Assembly: GCA_043803845.1 (NCBI GenBank)
Contig: JAZDJT010000006.1
Location: 1 to 50,137, forward strand
DNA from: Patescibacteria group bacterium
GTDB taxonomy: Bacteria > Patescibacteriota > Minisyncoccia > Minisyncoccales > GCA-002788555
Length of the DNA: 50,137 bases
Direction: 5' to 3'
Under the pieces are notes generated by a model that saw only the letters and a program-made list of their open reading frames with translations, made no database searches and was not told the DNA's origin. This document shows positions 2,596 through 47,699 of this stretch, piece after piece (position 1 is the stretch's first letter; each line of letters starts with the position of its first letter). The translations under genes were made by a program, and so were the position numbers.

Positions 2596-3105
2596 ATGGA
2601 TAACATAGAGGCGGAAAATATCTTAAAGGGTAAAATAGCCGAGGTTTTGGTTGAGGAGTTGTTGAGAAGATGCAGGAATAAGGTTTATCGGTTTGGCAAC
2701 GGAGAGATTTTAAAAAACTTGTCACAATCAGAAAAATTTTTTGACAGAGAGGGCGGAATCGGCAGAAAAATTTCTTCCATTCCTGACTTTTTGGTAACCA
2801 CAAAGGAAAGGAAAATCTATTTCTTAGAAGTGAAATTCAGAAGCGATCCCGAGGCCTTAGAAGAAGAGCTTTTGCTGGAGAAAGAAATCATTGAAAAAAT
2901 CTGGAAAGCAAAGATAGTTTTGGTAACCTCGAAAGAGAAACCCTATTTCCGGGTTCTGATACCGCCTTACTTCGCGAAAGAGAAAAGAGAAGGTTGGCCG
3001 ATTCCAGTTTTGAACTGGCTGCCCTTGGAAGACGATCCGGACCTCAATGTGAAATCAAAAGTTCTCAAGGAGTTCAATGAACTTATAGAAAAGTATTACA
3101 GATAA
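2596..3105 (+). CDS. Hypothetical protein, possible PD-(D/E)xK nuclease-fold protein
   Basis: 169-aa ORF. GKIAEVLVEELL...(SIPDFLV)...YFLEVKF gives an E...D...E-x-K spacing like Hjc/YraN-type nucleases. This rests on motifs only. Confidence 0.35.
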   Translation: MDNIEAENILKGKIAEVLVEELLRRCRNKVYRFGNGEILKNLSQSEKFFDREGGIGRKISSIPDFLVTTKERKIYFLEVKFRSDPEALEEELLLEKEIIEKIWKAKIVLVTSKEKPYFRVLIPPYFAKEKREGWPIPVLNWLPLEDDPDLNVKSKVLKEFNELIEKYYR

Positions 3106-22671: not shown

Positions 22672-23656
22672 ATGATTTTTGGCCATCGGAGACAGTTAAA
22701 AGTCCTATCCTGCCTTTTAAGGAAGGATTCCTTGCCACACGCGATATTATTTACAGGTCCTTCTAAGATTGGTAAAAAAACAATTGTTCTGGAAATCGTG
22801 CGATACCTCTGCCATTCTCCTAAAATTAATGAGAGTTTTTTTGATTTTCTCAAAAGAGATTGCGATTGCCACAATTGCGACTTGATTAAAAGCGGCAGAT
22901 TTCCCGGTGTTTTAAAGGTGGAAAGGGATGAAGATTTCTCCATAAAAAAAATCAGAGAGATTAGAGAACAAATCATCCTCTCTTCGGTCTATCCTTATAA
23001 AATTGTTGTTTTGGACAATATAGAAGGACTTTCTCGTGAGGCTACGGGTGCCCTACTAAAAATGTTGGAAGAGCCGCGAGGTAAAACTGTTTTCTTCCTG
23101 ATAGCGAAATTTCCTCATCTTCTGCCCAGGACCATTCTTTCTCGATGCGAAGCAATAAGATTCTATCCGCTGTCGAGAGAAGACATGAAAAAATTTATCG
23201 AGGCGGAGATAGGAAAAAACAAACTAAAAGTTCCTAGCCAAGAGCAGAGTAGAATTTTAGACTTTAGCATGGGTAGACCGGGCTTGACTCGAGAGCTTTT
23301 ACTTGACAAAAGATTATTAATTTGGTATAATTTATTTCTGGAGAGTGTGATTGGGATAAAAAAGTCTTCTTTATTTGAAAGGATGATGTTGGCGGAAAGG
23401 TTAGATAAGGAACGTGAGATTGATGACTTTCTTTTTTTTTACCGAGTATTATTTTCGAGACGTTTTAGCGACAAAAAAAGAAGTCGATAAATTATTTTTA
23501 GAATCCTCAAGGAAGGAATTGAAGAGAGAATCAGATTCTTTTTCAGAAAGGGAATTAAAAAAAATCATCAAGGATATACAAAAAACAAAAAAACATTTGT
23601 TTTTCTCTAATATCTCTCCACGTCTGGCAATAGAGAATTTTCTTTTGGGTATTTAA
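22672..23656 (+). CDS. holB: DNA polymerase III delta' subunit, reading frame broken at a T9 run
   Basis: The N-terminal ORF (22672-23490) has HAILFTGPSKIGKKT, LLKMLEEP and SRC motifs. The frame +2 ORF (23414-23656) supplies a plausible C-terminal domain ending RLAIENFLLGI. The two frames meet at T9 23432-23440. Confidence 0.8.
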
Positions 23657-23667
23657 GATTAACAATT

Positions 23668-24759
23668 ATGTTTAAAGAAATCGGTTGGGCAATATTGTGT
23701 TTTTTTATCGCTTACCTGGCTTTTGAGGGAGTATTTTATTTATTGGAAAAAGATTATGGCATAAAATTGCCCATCGCCGAAGAATTCTTTTTGTCTTATG
23801 ACGGTGGTGATGAATGGCTAGCGATAGAAGTACCGGACAATAAGGTAGTAACCAGCGGTGCCCTATCTTTTGACCCAGAAAACCCCCAGAGGCTTTATTT
23901 GGCTTCGCCGCGCGGCATTTTTTACAGGGACGAGGGTAGCAAGACCAAATTTCAAAAGACAGAGGCAAAGTTCGAGACAGAAAACGCTCCTCTTTTGATT
24001 TCTCAGACCATCACTTCGCCGCACAGCGATGAGACGATTTATATTATCTCTGAAGACATAGAGAGAAATAAGGTTTTGGTCTCTTATAATAAAGGGGAAA
24101 TCTTTCGGCCGATCTTCATCTCTCAGATAGATGACAAAATCTCGGCCTTCTCGGTTGATCCTTTTTATCCCAACGTTCTTTATGTTGGCACAAGGCTCGG
24201 CAACTTTCTAAAAAGCGAGGATTTCGGCAATTCTTGGGGGCAAAAGGACAACTTTATCCAAGAAGTGGGTCAAATCTCTCCAAATCCGCACACAAGAAAT
24301 GAGATTTATCTCTTACTTTCAAGAAGAGAAAGAGATCTTTATGACTATTACTCTCAACTTATGCCTTCAAAAATCATGGTAAGTATTAACGGCGGCACTA
24401 AATTTAGAGAACTCTCTTCGAAAATCGTTATGCCCGAGACAAGAAAAATAGTTTTTGATCCAATTATCAATAGAGTTTATTTCTTTTCCGATCTATCTCT
24501 TATTAGAAAGGAAGGTGAAAAAATTAAGATTGTGAATGTGGTAAAGCCATCTTTCGATAATAAAATTAAAAGCTTTACAATCGACCCTCAAAATTCTAAT
24601 ATATTATACGTGGGAGCTGACAATTTGATTTATAAATCGGAAGACGGAGGGAACAACTGGCAGATAATAGAATCACCGGTAAGAGGCGACGTCAAAGAAA
24701 TAAAGATTAATCCCGAAGATTCTCAGACTCTCATTATCTCAATCGAAAAAACTTTGTAA
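23668..24759 (+). CDS. Membrane-anchored BNR/Asp-box repeat beta-propeller protein
   Basis: Has an N-terminal TM helix and repeated S-x-D-x-G-x-x-W-like boxes (SYDGGDEW, SEDFGNSW, SINGGTKF, SEDGGNNW). Confidence 0.6.
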   Translation: MFKEIGWAILCFFIAYLAFEGVFYLLEKDYGIKLPIAEEFFLSYDGGDEWLAIEVPDNKVVTSGALSFDPENPQRLYLASPRGIFYRDEGSKTKFQKTEAKFETENAPLLISQTITSPHSDETIYIISEDIERNKVLVSYNKGEIFRPIFISQIDDKISAFSVDPFYPNVLYVGTRLGNFLKSEDFGNSWGQKDNFIQEVGQISPNPHTRNEIYLLLSRRERDLYDYYSQLMPSKIMVSINGGTKFRELSSKIVMPETRKIVFDPIINRVYFFSDLSLIRKEGEKIKIVNVVKPSFDNKIKSFTIDPQNSNILYVGADNLIYKSEDGGNNWQIIESPVRGDVKEIKINPEDSQTLIISIEKTL

Positions 24760-42442: not shown

Positions 42443-42718
42443 TTAAGAAGCAACACTGACTATTTTTACCTGCTTCTTCTTTCCATCAAAACAGTTCTTT
42501 CTTGTAATTACGAATTTTACGCGACCCTCTTTAAGGGCGTAAAGCGTGTCGTCCTTGCCCTTTTTGACATTATCACCCGCGACAAAATTGGTCCCTCTTT
42601 GCCTAATAATAATATTACCAGGTTCCACAGACTGACCGTCGAAAATCTTGACTCCTAGCCTTTGAGAGTAAGAATCTCTGCCAAGAGATGTGGAACCTTT
42701 TGATTTAGTTTTTGCCAT
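42443..42718 (-). CDS. rpmA: 50S ribosomal protein L27
   Basis: Reads [44 protein letters not shown] chose the second ATG of the ORF. Confidence 0.95.
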
Positions 42719-42852
42719 CATCTCACCCCGACCCCCGTATTAGATACCGTCGGTTTCCAACTCTCTCTTTTCGTCCTGTCTGTCTAACGACAGGCAAGCG
42801 GTAGTTGTTTTTCCACAACGGTGTAAGTGGCGGTAGGGGAATTAAAAATATA
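42719..42852 (-). promoter_or_regulatory. Structured 5' leader of rpmA
   Basis: It is about 134 nt. It has a CCUGUC-GUUAGACA-GACAGG hairpin. A 5' CCCCUACCG segment is complementary to CGGUA...GGGG, which overlaps the G-rich ribosome-binding region. Confidence 0.3.
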
Positions 42853-42858
42853 ATCATT

Positions 42859-42887
42859 ATGATATCAGATATTGAGAAATTTTTCAA
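42859..42887 (-). promoter_or_regulatory. Putative rpmA promoter
   Basis: On the minus strand: TTGAAA (42882-42887), 17 nt, TATCAT (42859-42864). Confidence 0.45.
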
Positions 42888-43006
42888 GGACAACGAAGCG
42901 GATATTATAATCGTAGCCGGAGTCATATTGATTTAGTTAATCAGCTTTGGAGTGGTTTGTTACTGGTCAGCGCTTCAAGCCTTACGCTATTTTATAGGTT
43001 TAGAGA

Positions 43007-43035
43007 TTGACAGATTCCGAGACGTAAAATATAAT
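43007..43035 (+). promoter_or_regulatory. Sigma70-type promoter, exact consensus (U1)
   Basis: TTGACA (43007-43012), 17-nt spacer, TATAAT (43030-43035). Confidence 0.7.
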
Positions 43036-43412
43036 AAAATTAGCACCTGAGAGAATTATTAATCAATTCTCAGCAGAAAAGGCTTACGGTCTCGCTTGAT
43101 AATGTCTTGCAACAATTGACTTTGATCCTTTGAGGATTTTTGATGACAGTAAAACAGTCTCCGATACTTGGAGAATCATTTTTAGGAAGGTTCTCTCCTA
43201 ATGACATTTCTTCTTTGCGACTTAAAGTATCGTTGTAATTCAAAAAATCCTTTCTCCTTACTCTTATTTAGGACGCAAGCCATAAATTCACTTTCGCTAC
43301 ATTGTTAGCGCCTTCTGGACTGATAGGTCTCTGCAGAGAGAATTGTTAATAATTTCTCTCTCTTTTCTTTTTAGAACAAATCGAAAAAGAAATTTTTTGG
43401 TTTCAGTAAAAG

Positions 43413-43445
43413 TTTTTTTGACCGAGAATCACGGTCTTTTATTTT
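43413..43445 (+). repeat. 33-nt terminator module, copy A
   Basis: TTTTTTTGACCGAGAATCaCGGTCTTTTATTTT, which is 32/33 identical to copy B. Confidence 0.85.
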
Positions 43446-43449
43446 TTTT
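43420..43449 (+). terminator. Intrinsic terminator (U1)
   Basis: GACCG-AGAAUCA-CGGUC followed by TTTTATTTTTTTT. Confidence 0.65.
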
Positions 43450-43499
43450 GAACAATTTCCTGTTGAGTTTACCCCGCCCGATCTTGTGGGGGTTTACTA

Positions 43500-43528
43500 T
43501 TGACATTTTACCTATAAAGTAATATAAT
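43500..43528 (+). promoter_or_regulatory. Sigma70-type promoter, exact consensus (U2)
   Basis: TTGACA (43500-43505), 17-nt spacer, TATAAT (43523-43528). Confidence 0.7.
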
Positions 43529-43855
43529 TTAGACAGCTCTAAAGTTCCAAATACGTGGAGAAAGACTTCTGTCTGTCGCAGAAATAGCAAGGTAGCCGGC
43601 AAAAGGGCGGAGACGTGGTTTTAATACAAGGAAGGAAGCCGATTAGGCAGCCCCTCTAAGGAATATGACAACCTTCAGCGCTTTCCTTTAAAAGGAAGAC
43701 GTAAAGGTACTCGAATCCTTAGCGTCGAAAGGCAATGTGTGTCCTAGAAACCACATCTATCGGGTACCCCCTCTCGCACAACGGAAAAGCATTAATCCGC
43801 CTTGCACTGCAGAGAAAGATAGATTAAAAGTCTTTCTCCTTTTTTTTCAACATCC

Positions 43856-43888
43856 TTTTTTTGACCGAGAATCTCGGTCTTTTATTTT
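43856..43888 (+). repeat. 33-nt terminator module, copy B
   Basis: TTTTTTTGACCGAGAATCtCGGTCTTTTATTTT, located 443 nt downstream of copy A. Confidence 0.85.
43863..43888 (+). terminator. Intrinsic terminator (U2)
   Basis: GACCGAG-AAT-CTCGGTC (7 bp) followed by TTTTATTTT. Confidence 0.75.
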
Positions 43889-43954
43889 AGACTAGTGTGG
43901 TAAGACAGTGATTTTTCTTTTTGTACCTCCACATTCGTGATATGATAGAAATCA

Positions 43955-43970
43955 ATGGGCTAACGCCCAT
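43955..43970 (+). other. GC-rich hairpin ATGGGC-TAAC-GCCCAT
   Basis: Perfect 6-bp stem with a 4-nt loop, in an AT-rich spacer. Confidence 0.6.
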
Positions 43971-44054
43971 GGCTTGCGTACCTTCAAAATTTTTCTTTGT
44001 AAAATTTTGAGATTTGTGTATTTTTCTCCGCTACGCTCCGGGCTTGCCTTGTTT

Positions 44055-44074
44055 CTACGGGCTTACGCCCGTAG
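44055..44074 (+). other. GC-rich hairpin CTACGGGC-TTAC-GCCCGTAG
   Basis: Perfect 8-bp stem. It has the same GGGC-UNAC-GCCC core as the hairpin at 43955. Confidence 0.6.
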
Positions 44075-44100
44075 TCTTGGAGCAAGAAAATATAAACATT

Positions 44101-44439
44101 ATGGAAGAACAAGATAATGAAAGTTATAGCCAACCGACGAAATATTTAAAGTTTTTTCTGATATTGATAAGCATTCTTTGCCTTATCTCCTCAACTCTTA
44201 CAGTTAAAAACTCTACCGGATTGACTTTCGCAGAGAATTTATCAACCGGCAAACTCTACATCACCAAGGATGCCTGTTTTTCAATTTGGCTTATCTCCTG
44301 TTTAAGTCTTTTTAGTTTTATCTTGGCGATTTTTAATTTTAGAAGAACGAAAATATTGGTCGTCTTTTTGATAATCGGATTGTTTCTATTGCTGTTTTCT
44401 CAAAACGCTCCGTTAGTAAAAGTTTGCATTCCTGACTAA
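44101..44439 (+). CDS. Hypothetical small membrane protein (about 3 TM)
   Basis: 112 aa from ATG 44101. The upstream TTG-initiated extension (44014) runs through GC-rich hairpins and was discarded. Confidence 0.5.
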   Translation: MEEQDNESYSQPTKYLKFFLILISILCLISSTLTVKNSTGLTFAENLSTGKLYITKDACFSIWLISCLSLFSFILAIFNFRRTKILVVFLIIGLFLLLFSQNAPLVKVCIPD

Positions 44440-44504: not shown

Positions 44505-44870
44505 ATGAAAAAAACTTTCCCTAAATTGAGTTTACCGATAAATCAAAAAAGGGTAAAGCCAAATAGAGACCCGTGCGGACTGATCAGGGAGCTTTATCAT
44601 TCTGCCAATTTAAGTATTGCCCATAATACCATTGTTGACTGCGCCAGGGAACATCTGCACAGCAAGATTGATGAGACTTACTATGTTTTAAAAGGTAAGG
44701 GACAGTTGGTAATAAATAAGAATAAATTAGAGATAAGGGAAGGCGATATTATTCCTGTCGAAAAGAATAACTGGCACTACCTGAAAAAAACTAACGACGA
44801 ACCTCTTGAGGTTTTGGTCATAACTTACCCCCGCTACAACCCGAAAGATTTGTTTTTAACCGGACATTAG
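44505..44870 (+). CDS. Single-domain cupin protein (copy 1)
   Basis: 121 aa with EHLHSKIDETYYVLKGKG (HxH..E..G) and GDIIPVEKNNWHYL (P....H). It is a paralog of 46492-46839. Confidence 0.75.
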   Translation: MKKTFPKLSLPINQKRVKPNRDPCGLIRELYHSANLSIAHNTIVDCAREHLHSKIDETYYVLKGKGQLVINKNKLEIREGDIIPVEKNNWHYLKKTNDEPLEVLVITYPRYNPKDLFLTGH

Positions 44871-46491: not shown

Positions 46492-46839
46492 ATGACTAAA
46501 AAGATAAACAAAAAGGACGTCAAGCCGAAAATAGACCCTTGCGGATTGCTAAGAGAGCTTTGTAATTCAGAAAATGTCAGCATCGCTCATGATACCGTTC
46601 TGGGCACCGCCAAGGAGCATATGCACCATCAGATGGAAGAAATATATTACGTAGAAAAAGGTGAAGGACAATTGGTTATTGACAAGGAAATTTTAGATAT
46701 CACAGAAGGGGATTTAATCCCAATTCCTAAAAATACCTGGCACTACCTAAAGAAAATAGCTGGTAAAAACCTTGAAGTTTTGGTTATAACTCATCCAAAA
46801 TACATTCCTGAGGATTTAATTTTAAAGAAAAATAAATAA
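46492..46839 (+). CDS. Single-domain cupin protein (copy 2)
   Basis: 115 aa with EHMHHQMEEIYYVEKGEG and GDLIPIPKNTWHYL. By eye it is about half identical to copy 1 along its whole length. Confidence 0.75.
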   Translation: MTKKINKKDVKPKIDPCGLLRELCNSENVSIAHDTVLGTAKEHMHHQMEEIYYVEKGEGQLVIDKEILDITEGDLIPIPKNTWHYLKKIAGKNLEVLVITHPKYIPEDLILKKNK

Positions 46840-47404: not shown

Positions 47405-47456
47405 TTATCTAAAAATTTTTAATTTAAAAGGTCAAAAAAAAATAATTTTTTTTAAA

Positions 47457-47699
47457 ATGACCGCTCGTCGGTCAAAAAAAATGATAGTAGGAGCTTTCAT
47501 AATAATTTTGGGAATAATTCTCTTGCTGAAAAATATCGGAATTTTAACTGATAGCGTCTGGGATGTTTTTTGGAGCATCTTTTGGCCATCGCTGGTAATA
47601 GCTATAGGACTGAGCATGATATTTCCAAAAGGGAAGTGGTACCATTGCTGTGGTATGAACTGGGGTAAAGAAAAGGAAAAAGAAGACATAAAAAAGTAA
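47457..47699 (+). CDS. DUF5668 / LiaF-N-like small membrane protein
   Basis: 80 aa from ATG 47457. It has two TM helices (GAFIIILGIILLLKNIG...FWPSLVIAIGLSMIF), as in the LiaI/LiaF-like TM module. Confidence 0.5.
   Translation: MTARRSKKMIVGAFIIILGIILLLKNIGILTDSVWDVFWSIFWPSLVIAIGLSMIFPKGKWYHCCGMNWGKEKEKEDIKK

Follow-up and report, generated by a model that had tools for sequence, protein, structure and literature searches.

What is encoded in the long stretch that follows rpmA in the genome of a Patescibacteria group bacterium? In the 50,137 nucleotides (nt) of contig JAZDJT010000006.1 (assembly GCA_043803845.1) that we analysed, hereafter the window, rpmA occupies 42443-42721 on the - strand and the next credible start is an ATG at 44101, which opens a small membrane-protein gene; between them lie only short open reading frames (ORFs), none of which matched a Pfam family. 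A previous description of this DNA, made without database searches (the sequence-only reading), had taken the stretch to be an ORF-free locus with two tandem non-coding units, here unit 1 and unit 2, specifying RNAs outside the known families. This interpretation is supported by the absence of Rfam matches and of a conserved ORF in the stretch and by orthologues of unit 2 in related genomes, and our sequence comparisons add that unit 2 appears to belong to a small, conserved and unlisted family, that unit 1 appears to be a lineage-specific duplicate, and that part of the gap is apparently due to gene decay. We consider it very probable that the stretch contains real, conserved structured RNA genes of a family absent from Rfam. 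With moderate confidence, we further propose that two genes in tandem, each transcribed on its own, specify a structured non-coding RNA of ~330-380 nt that is peculiar to this lineage; it would be a stable RNA that acts in trans and binds protein.

The elements that define the two units are as follows.
43007..43035, + strand, promoter of unit 1, TTGACA-N17-TATAAT, exact match (12/12)
43042..43376, + strand, predicted RNA body of unit 1, with the start placed 7 nt past the -10 element and 43049-43071 pairing with 43338-43360
43336-43360, + strand, first terminator (T1) of unit 1, hairpin and U-run
43413..43445, + strand, second terminator (T2) of unit 1, a 33-nt element of U7, the hairpin GACCGAGAAUCACGGUC (43420-43436) and a U-run
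43500..43528, + strand, promoter of unit 2, TTGACA-N17-TATAAT, exact match (12/12)
43535..43848, + strand, predicted RNA body of unit 2, in which GGAGAAAGACUU (43557-43568) pairs with AAGUCUUUCUCC (43828-43839) as a perfect 12-base-pair (bp) inverted repeat
43812-43838, + strand, T1 of unit 2, hairpin (43812-43819 pairs with 43831-43838) and U8
43856..43888, + strand, T2 of unit 2, a 33-nt element of U7, the hairpin GACCGAGAAUCUCGGUC (43863-43879) and a U-run

Both exact promoters were found where the sequence-only reading had placed them, and its estimate that chance would hardly supply such sites agreed with our counts: the whole window contains three exact TTGACA-N17-TATAAT sites, the third at 23303-23331, compared with none in 100 dinucleotide-preserving shuffles of the window, and only one additional site was found on either strand when 11 of the 12 positions were required to match. 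The near-identical hairpin and T-tract terminators described about 400 and 350 nt downstream correspond to T2. Its hairpin follows the -10 element at a distance of ~385 nt in unit 1 and ~335 nt in unit 2, and its two 33-nt copies are 97% identical. T1, with its own hairpin and U-run, lies ~300 nt past the promoter in each unit. The CCGAG/CUCGG stem in T2 of unit 2 is kept in all lineages described below, and the corresponding stem of unit 1 has one mismatch. The third exact promoter (+ strand) is situated inside the C-terminal part of the ORF for DNA polymerase III delta' (22672-23490). We rejected it as a third RNA unit, as it lies inside a coding region and the 328 nt downstream show no structure (z +0.9); the site is an internal promoter serving the gene at 23668, or else a chance match. 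Because of this site, exact consensus promoters are not exclusive to these RNAs, which qualifies the earlier idea that such strong promoters are normally reserved for stable or regulatory RNAs.

The CTP synthase encoded by the flanking pyrG places the window in Patescibacteria (the candidate phyla radiation), and relatives of the window were reached mainly through this gene. The nearest CTP synthases in a protein collection of 5.8 billion clusters were 82%, 82%, 78% and then ~75% identical, and the best GTDB species representative had a CTP synthase of ~70% identity. Locus L001, a 1-kb contig of JGI 3300018068, was 99.6% identical to the window and belongs to the same species. Other datasets known to contain these organisms are SRR6481338, ERZ27248180/JGI 3300031862, ERZ778604 and SRR22387909. 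In L082 (82% pyrG identity) and in L084/L085 (78%), the gene order is L9, pyrG, rpmA (- strand), Ada_Zn_binding, a gap of ~520 nt, and AsnC_trans_reg, which in L082 and L084 encodes a protein of 77-78 amino acids (aa). The gap in L082 and L084 contains, in order, a promoter (TTGACA-N17-TATATT or TATACT), a short 5′ hairpin, GGGAGGAAAG, an interior of ~300 nt, CCUUUCCUCCC, which is complementary to GGGAGGAAAG, a U-run, and a hairpin of the form CCGAG-loop-CUCGG with a U-tail. An RNA gene directly after an Ada-like gene was also found in L115, reached via its cupin gene and carrying an exact TTGACA-N17-TATAAT promoter, and in L121, reached via its Ada-like protein and carrying TTGACA-N16-TATAAT. 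The layout of promoter, end-pairing and terminator is therefore present at the orthologous position in four other lineages (L082, L084/L094, L115 and L121), with a single copy per relative, always following rpmA and the Ada-like gene. The orthologues are 330-420 nt long and fold into one long irregular hairpin; the predicted start is separated from the first U-run by 314-335 nt in the window and by ~375-420 nt in the relatives.

The distribution of the family appears to be narrow. Scanning JGI metagenomes for the T2 pattern gave 23 matches, 6 of which were family copies, all close to L082 or L084, and the remaining 17 were set aside as unrelated terminators. The same pattern had 0 matches in viral contigs, and the RNA itself had none in a phage collection. 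A search with nhmmer using both units against 80 pyrG loci of GTDB species representatives found nothing, because those relatives, with pyrG identities of 71% or less, are too distant. A custom scan for a promoter, a 5′-3′ complement and a U-run on both strands of 3.3 Mb of related loci likewise revealed no further members, and there were no further copies in the window. Loci of ~75% pyrG identity (L086-L091 and L120) have kept the pair of rpmA and Ada-like gene, with no RNA-sized gap after it. Two of these loci without the RNA carry a tyrosine integrase close to the Ada-like gene (L089, 8438-9400; L120, 4578-5519), and the site near that gene may be a hot spot of integration or rearrangement.

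In order to relate the two units to the family, models of its 3′ module were used. A profile hidden Markov model (HMM) built from L082, L084, L094 and L115 found unit 2 at 43804-43882 (nhmmer E 4e-4), which was its best match outside the training lineages. A covariance model of the 3′ module, made from five sequences of other lineages with the window left out, gave its best match in the window (100 kb searched) at the 3′ end of unit 2 (43801-43882, 30.2 bits, E 2.5e-5) and its second-best at the 3′ end of unit 1 (43329-43397, 18.1 bits, E 0.022). Neither unit was detected by a 5′-module profile with nhmmer. The third-best covariance-model match (15 bits, E 0.13) was a T2-like hairpin, UUUUUUUUGACCGACGAGCGGUCAUUUU, at 47454-47480 on the - strand with 13 identical nt; since it shares nucleotides with the start of a small membrane ORF on the plus strand, it was judged coincidental and was not taken as a family element. 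Unit 2 has all the family features, namely promoter, purine/pyrimidine closure, U-run, CCGAG...CUCGG and rod, in addition to its 3′ homology. Unit 1 has them as well, with the weak homology score and the mismatched T2 stem noted above. Two words set the units apart from the other lineages: GCAGAAA, close to the 5′ strand, and, ahead of the 3′ hairpin, CUGCAGAGA, which L121 shares in part. The interiors of the two units could not be aligned. Unit 2 sits at the position of the relatives' RNA gene, and unit 1 lies where the body of the missing Ada-like gene was. By position, architecture and 3′ sequence, unit 2 is thus the orthologue of the relatives' single-copy RNA, and unit 1 is probably a diverged, window-specific paralogue, for which the case is weaker. 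No relative has more than one copy, which makes the tandem pair a feature of the window lineage alone. Conservation in related genomes, which had been named as a test of both units, was found for unit 2 (a positional orthologue in four lineages, 3′ homology and covariation) and not for unit 1, which has no orthologue.

Fold z-scores were -4.15 for unit 1 and -4.19 for unit 2, with 0 of 100 shuffles as good, and the minimum-energy fold of all six sequences tested was essentially one long irregular hairpin closed by both ends. Nesting depth in the six was 71-117, compared with 45-54 ± 11-17 in dinucleotide shuffles, and at most 1 shuffle in 100 reached the observed value (unit 1, 92 against 51 ± 14, 0/100; unit 2, 71 against 45 ± 11, 1/100). 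The closing helices between the 5′ and 3′ ends are 12-22 bp long, nearly perfect and continued by further helices, and their composition of a purine 5′ strand and a pyrimidine 3′ strand is kept as the sequence changes (GGGAGGAAAG/CUUUCCUCCC, GGAGAAAGACUU/AAGUCUUUCUCC and GAGAGAAUUAUUAA/UUAAUAAUUUCUCUC). As a check for covariation, L082, L084, L094, L107 and L121, five sequences of three lineages, were aligned and folded with RNAalifold. The consensus had 95 pairs with 94% of cells paired, and 12 pairs showed compensatory, two-sided changes, in comparison with 3.0 ± 1.6 in column shuffles (0 of 500 reached 12) and 1-5 after the partners had been slid. Adding unit 2, unit 1 and L115 by sequence alignment left only the basal helices paired; unit 2 kept 9 of the 10 pairs of helix 1 and 6 of the 8 of helix 4. 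The conserved core is therefore the basal third, the apical part having diverged too far to be aligned. The core comprises helices 1-4, a 3′-strand bulge of 22-26 nt, the first 30-40 transcribed nt and T2; the bulge is asymmetric and carries a small hairpin and an ACCCCCU-like word. The short 5′ hairpin is clear in L082 and L084/L094, and is not seen in L115, L121, unit 1 or unit 2.

Sequence identities between relatives also bear on whether this DNA has a function. Between L082 and L084 the RNA is 81% identical, which compares with 80% for pyrG DNA, 76% for rpmA, 72% for the Ada-like gene and 49% for the spacer after T2; at greater distance the RNA is 51-64% and rpmA 65-76% identical. These values indicate, at the level of sequence, purifying selection on the base of the rod. 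A non-functional origin would instead make the stretch a set of decaying remnants together with a fold-back repeat resembling a miniature inverted-repeat transposable element, in which words like promoters and terminators occur by chance. There is indeed a pseudogene remnant at the locus (described below), the interior of the RNA is poorly conserved, and the rod is also an imperfect palindrome at the DNA level, because the minus strand folds equally well and G-U pairs make up only 8-10% of the pairs. However, five lineages have retained promoter, closing helix and T2 with compensatory changes, and conservation between L082 and L084 is as high in the RNA region as in pyrG, whereas the spacer adjoining the RNA cannot be aligned. 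The element is also single-copy and syntenic, with no other copies in the window, the 3.3 Mb of related loci or phages, and the shuffles produced no exact promoter site. We therefore regard non-functional DNA as a very unlikely explanation.

If the DNA is functional, it could still encode a small protein. Many of the indels that separate the orthologues are of 1, 2 or 4 nt, not multiples of three, and no ORF or start codon is conserved among them; thus, the RNA is non-coding. An mRNA for a small protein, such as a type I toxin of the hok kind locked by pairing between its 5′ and 3′ ends, would also be 300-400 nt long with a strong promoter and long-distance 5′-3′ pairing, and the purine-rich 5′ strand resembles a Shine-Dalgarno sequence. 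Against such an mRNA, the indels of 1, 2 and 4 nt disrupt any shared frame, most lineages have no start codon at a usable distance after GGAGG, and the short ORFs of the stretch are not hydrophobic and match no family. This makes a hok-type mRNA extremely unlikely.

The pyrimidine strand has two possible partners, the far 5′ strand and a nearby copy of the 5′ strand. The 3′ arm of unit 1 is also a local hairpin that is followed by a U-rich run (T1), and in both units the local hairpin stands directly before the U-run and, from its sequence, should terminate transcription. In RNAs of the L082 type the local hairpin is weak and 4-8 nt away from the U-run, and hence T2 is probably the real terminator there. 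Such a choice of partners could be expected of a cis-acting leader or attenuator (a riboswitch, T-box or similar), in which the pyrimidine strand would be contested between the 5′ strand and the local terminator hairpin, and this three-part arrangement is conserved. But every lineage has a second terminator, conserved in sequence, and the genes that follow differ: a membrane protein in the window, the AsnC-type protein of 78 aa (AsnC78) in L082 and L084, an unrelated ORF in L115 and, in L121, a protein of 148 aa. In L082, L084 and L121 the following gene has a separate promoter-like site. Moreover, the weak L082-type hairpin lies far from the U-run, and no riboswitch or T-box model of Rfam was matched at E ≤ 10. 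Because of the two terminators, the differing downstream genes and the separate promoter-like sites of some of them, we do not consider the RNA to be a cis leader, an explanation to which we give very little credence.

Known RNA families were searched with Rfam 15. At the gathering score the whole window and 118 kb from relatives gave nothing. With relaxed filters, a threshold of E ≤ 10 gave nothing relevant in 42650-44150 or in three other short stretches including the orthologous RNAs; models of 6S RNA (RF00013 and 6S-Flavo), Ms1 and RNase P RNA were among those without a match in 42650-44150 and the orthologous RNAs, and 6S had none at the gathering score. The cmscan run that had been proposed as a check therefore matched no known family in the window or its orthologues, in line with the earlier impression, gained by eye, that neither unit is RNase P RNA, transfer-messenger RNA (tmRNA), signal recognition particle (SRP) RNA, 6S RNA, a T-box or a common riboswitch. 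ARAGORN detected no tRNA or tmRNA in the window and no tmRNA in L082, L084, L088 and L089. In the literature we found no report on 6S RNA or RNase P RNA in Patescibacteria. Two regulatory types were also tried and rejected. A sponge of the CsrB/RsmZ type was dismissed, as the 5-9 GGA motifs per RNA equal the genome-wide rate (0.019 per nt) and are nearly all paired. An antisense regulator was dismissed, as the complementarity of the units to the remainder of the 50-kb window, which is only ~5% of a genome, was at chance level.

The length of 330-420 nt, the strong promoter and the paired ends would suit a very divergent housekeeping RNA (RNase P RNA, tmRNA, SRP RNA or a true 6S RNA) missed by the Rfam models. 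GGGAGGAAAG resembles what we take to be GAGGAAAG of the RNase P CR-I region, and unit 2 contains GGAAGGAAGC, presumably as in SRP helix 8; these are likenesses to words that are not conserved between the lineages. The four short stretches scanned at E ≤ 10 gave no Rfam match and ARAGORN no tmRNA, however, and the GAGGAAAG-like purine strand pairs with the 3′ end and does not form P4. The gene is also missing from the locus in close relatives and duplicated in the window, and its interior evolves too fast for a catalytic core. Accordingly, a divergent housekeeping RNA is highly improbable.

Our favoured explanation of two tandem genes for a stable, protein-binding RNA would work as follows. Each strong sigma-70 promoter is predicted to yield an abundant and stable RNA, the ends of which would pair into a rod, and the conserved base of the rod would serve as a platform for protein. 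The RNA would act neither by coding nor by controlling the next gene in cis, and the closest architectural analogue of the proposed action is Ms1, an RNA polymerase binder of the 6S type. By this analogy the partner might be RNA polymerase itself, which is possible and on the unlikely side, some other partner being the more probable case. A different mechanism starts from the same genes: the rods could be double-stranded RNA precursors, in which RNase III would cut the closing helix to release one or more smaller RNAs, with the apical part being functional, for example in target pairing. RNase III is known to act in this way on rRNA processing stalks, and there are hairpin-derived regulators as well. 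The length and near-perfection of the closing helices (12-22 bp, with further helices), the strong promoters, and an apical region that evolves fast over a conserved base agree with such a precursor, whereas the units showed no above-chance complementarity to the window. We consider the RNase III precursor unlikely; it is compatible with the protein-binding stable RNA on the identity of the genes and differs in mechanism only.

Several observations weigh against our favoured explanation, including its polymerase-like form. Where the transcripts end and how abundant they are is predicted solely from motifs of promoters and terminators. With just five lineages known (~9 distinct sequences), covariation gives thin evidence, and it was scored on a structure obtained from those very sequences. 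An RNA with an elaborate tertiary fold would not usually leave its apical two thirds unconserved, as is the case here. The two strands fold about equally well, so that only the conserved promoters and the U-runs assign the RNA to the plus strand. Support for the homology of unit 1 is weak (E 0.022), its 5′ end having gone undetected. No clear two-sided central bubble of the 6S type is conserved, the consensus showing multi-helix junctions and the asymmetric 22-26-nt 3′ bulge, and neither 6S nor Ms1 models matched the window stretch or the orthologues in Rfam at E ≤ 10. A gene for 5-formyltetrahydrofolate cyclo-ligase, the neighbour typical of 6S RNA, is absent near the RNA in the window and loosely placed in L121, 2.3 kb away. 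Finally, the RNA is missing from the locus in relatives of ~75% pyrG identity, and so it is either dispensable or has moved.

The rest of the gap is explained in part by the neighbouring genes, for which two more features are needed.
42859..42951, + strand, remnant of an Ada-like gene (membrane-anchored Ada_Zn_binding type), N-terminus, 31 codons, found with tblastn
43889..44100, + strand, spacer of 210 nt before the small membrane-protein gene, at the place of the AsnC_trans_reg gene of L082 and L084

The remnant is 77% identical over 31 aa to the L082 protein (tblastn E 4e-10) and 61% identical over 31 aa to that of L084 (E 2e-7). It has an in-frame TAG at 42934-42936, codon 26, and the remainder of the gene is gone, while the gene is intact in L082, L084 and L121. 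A possible C-terminal remnant at 43473-43496 had no significant match (tblastn E 2.1, 8 aa), and we make no claim for it. In L115, the Ada-like gene has an in-frame TAA at 3098-3100, which makes a second independent lineage with an in-frame stop. The Ada-like gene seems to be decaying while the adjoining RNA gene is kept. In the spacer no remnant of an AsnC-type gene was detected with tblastn; it contains two G+C-rich hairpins (e.g. at 43955-43970). The locus has, as had been said, no convincing ORF, and none of its short ORFs matches Pfam, but it is not simply empty, given the Ada-like remnant. By these comparisons its ORF-free state appears to be partly the result of decay of the Ada-like gene and loss of the small AsnC-type gene.

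Further observations concern the flanks of the locus. The 17-mer AAAATATAAnCATTATG is present at 42845-42861 and 44087-44103 (16 of 17 identical), at the start codons of the Ada-like remnant and the membrane-protein gene, and could be a common translation-start context or chance. The leader of rpmA (42722-42852, - strand, 131 nt) had a fold z-score of -3.0, with 0 of 200 shuffles as good; it is preceded by a promoter, TTGAAA-N17-TATCAT with a TG extension (42887-42859, - strand), and a CCCC stretch in it pairs with GGGG beside the ribosome-binding site. In relatives merely 40-90 nt separate rpmA from the next opposite-strand gene, and 42722-42852 may be a lineage-specific ribosomal-protein leader. 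Downstream, two paralogous Cupin_2 genes (44505-44870 and 46492-46839) are 61% identical and 1.6 kb apart, the first being syntenic with the cupin gene of L082 and L115.

Patescibacteria have genomes of ~1 Mb with almost no intergenic DNA, and structured bacterial RNAs longer than 300 nt are, to our knowledge, few, those that have been solved having unusual functions. Despite its minimal genome, this lineage keeps a non-coding RNA gene of ~400 bp under its best promoters, and the window has duplicated it. We tentatively suggest, at somewhat less than even confidence, an undescribed class of rod-shaped regulatory RNA of 330-420 nt in one lineage of Patescibacteria, the base of which would dock a protein, possibly RNA polymerase; tuning within the lineage, or else an arms race, would account for its fast apical domain and its duplication. 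Little work seems to exist on regulatory RNAs of the candidate phyla radiation. Should RNA polymerase or another central protein be sequestered by the RNA, growth-phase control would become accessible in organisms that do not grow in culture by themselves, and the RNA would be a rare regulatory RNA defined in minimal, uncultured episymbionts. At the least, the results provide a candidate new family of narrow distribution for RNA databases and a concrete target for metatranscriptome mapping.

Among known systems, Y RNAs, which bind Ro60/Rsr, are ~100 nt long and adjoin rsr, and bacterial ones have a tRNA-like module and tandem paralogues. They share with the Patescibacteria RNA a conserved stem made of the 5′ and 3′ ends, a variable apical part, a 3′ U-run and tandem paralogues, but the length of ~100 nt, the rsr neighbour and the tRNA-like module were not seen here, and there was no Rfam match. 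Like OLE, GOLLD, ROOL and raiA, the RNA is longer than 300 nt, structured, predicted to be independently transcribed, without an assigned function and restricted in lineage; in contrast to them, it has a much narrower distribution, and their Rfam models were not matched. A complex tertiary fold is also less likely than in those four, because only the basal part is conserved.

6S RNA (RF00013) is ~180 nt long (160-200) and has a large central bubble on both sides, in imitation of an open promoter; it binds the sigma-70 holoenzyme and serves as a template for pRNA. It is highly expressed from sigma-70 promoters, its sequence evolves fast under a conserved shape, synteny with the folate cyclo-ligase gene is typical, and paralogue pairs are known, such as 6S-1 and 6S-2 in Bacillus. 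The Patescibacteria RNA resembles it in being a rod closed by 5′-3′ pairing, in its sigma-70 promoter, in the paralogue pair and in its fast-evolving sequence. It differs in being twice as long (330-420 against ~180 nt) with no Rfam match at E ≤ 10, in a consensus that shows multi-helix junctions and an asymmetric 3′ bulge with no clear two-sided central bubble, and in having no consistent link to the cyclo-ligase gene, which was near it in L121 only, at 2.3 kb.

The closest likeness is to Ms1, a rod-like RNA of ~300 nt that is described as having a central bubble and a short hairpin at either end (PMC9130861), which binds the RNA polymerase core in Actinobacteria (PMC4191392, PMC9130861). The two are alike in length, both being longer than 6S RNA, in the rod fold and in a 3′ hairpin, which here is T2 and occurs in all lineages; the 5′ hairpin of Ms1 has a clear counterpart in L082 and L084/L094 only. 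Ms1 is an abundant independent transcript with a poorly conserved sequence, homologues of which were found largely by gene synteny, and the Patescibacteria RNA, predicted to be abundant, may be likened to it in these respects. On the other hand, Ms1 comes from another phylum, there is no similarity to it in sequence or by covariance model, and a conserved central bubble is not evident in our RNA, and the Patescibacteria family is alone in having the purine/pyrimidine closing helix and the conserved CCGAG terminator.

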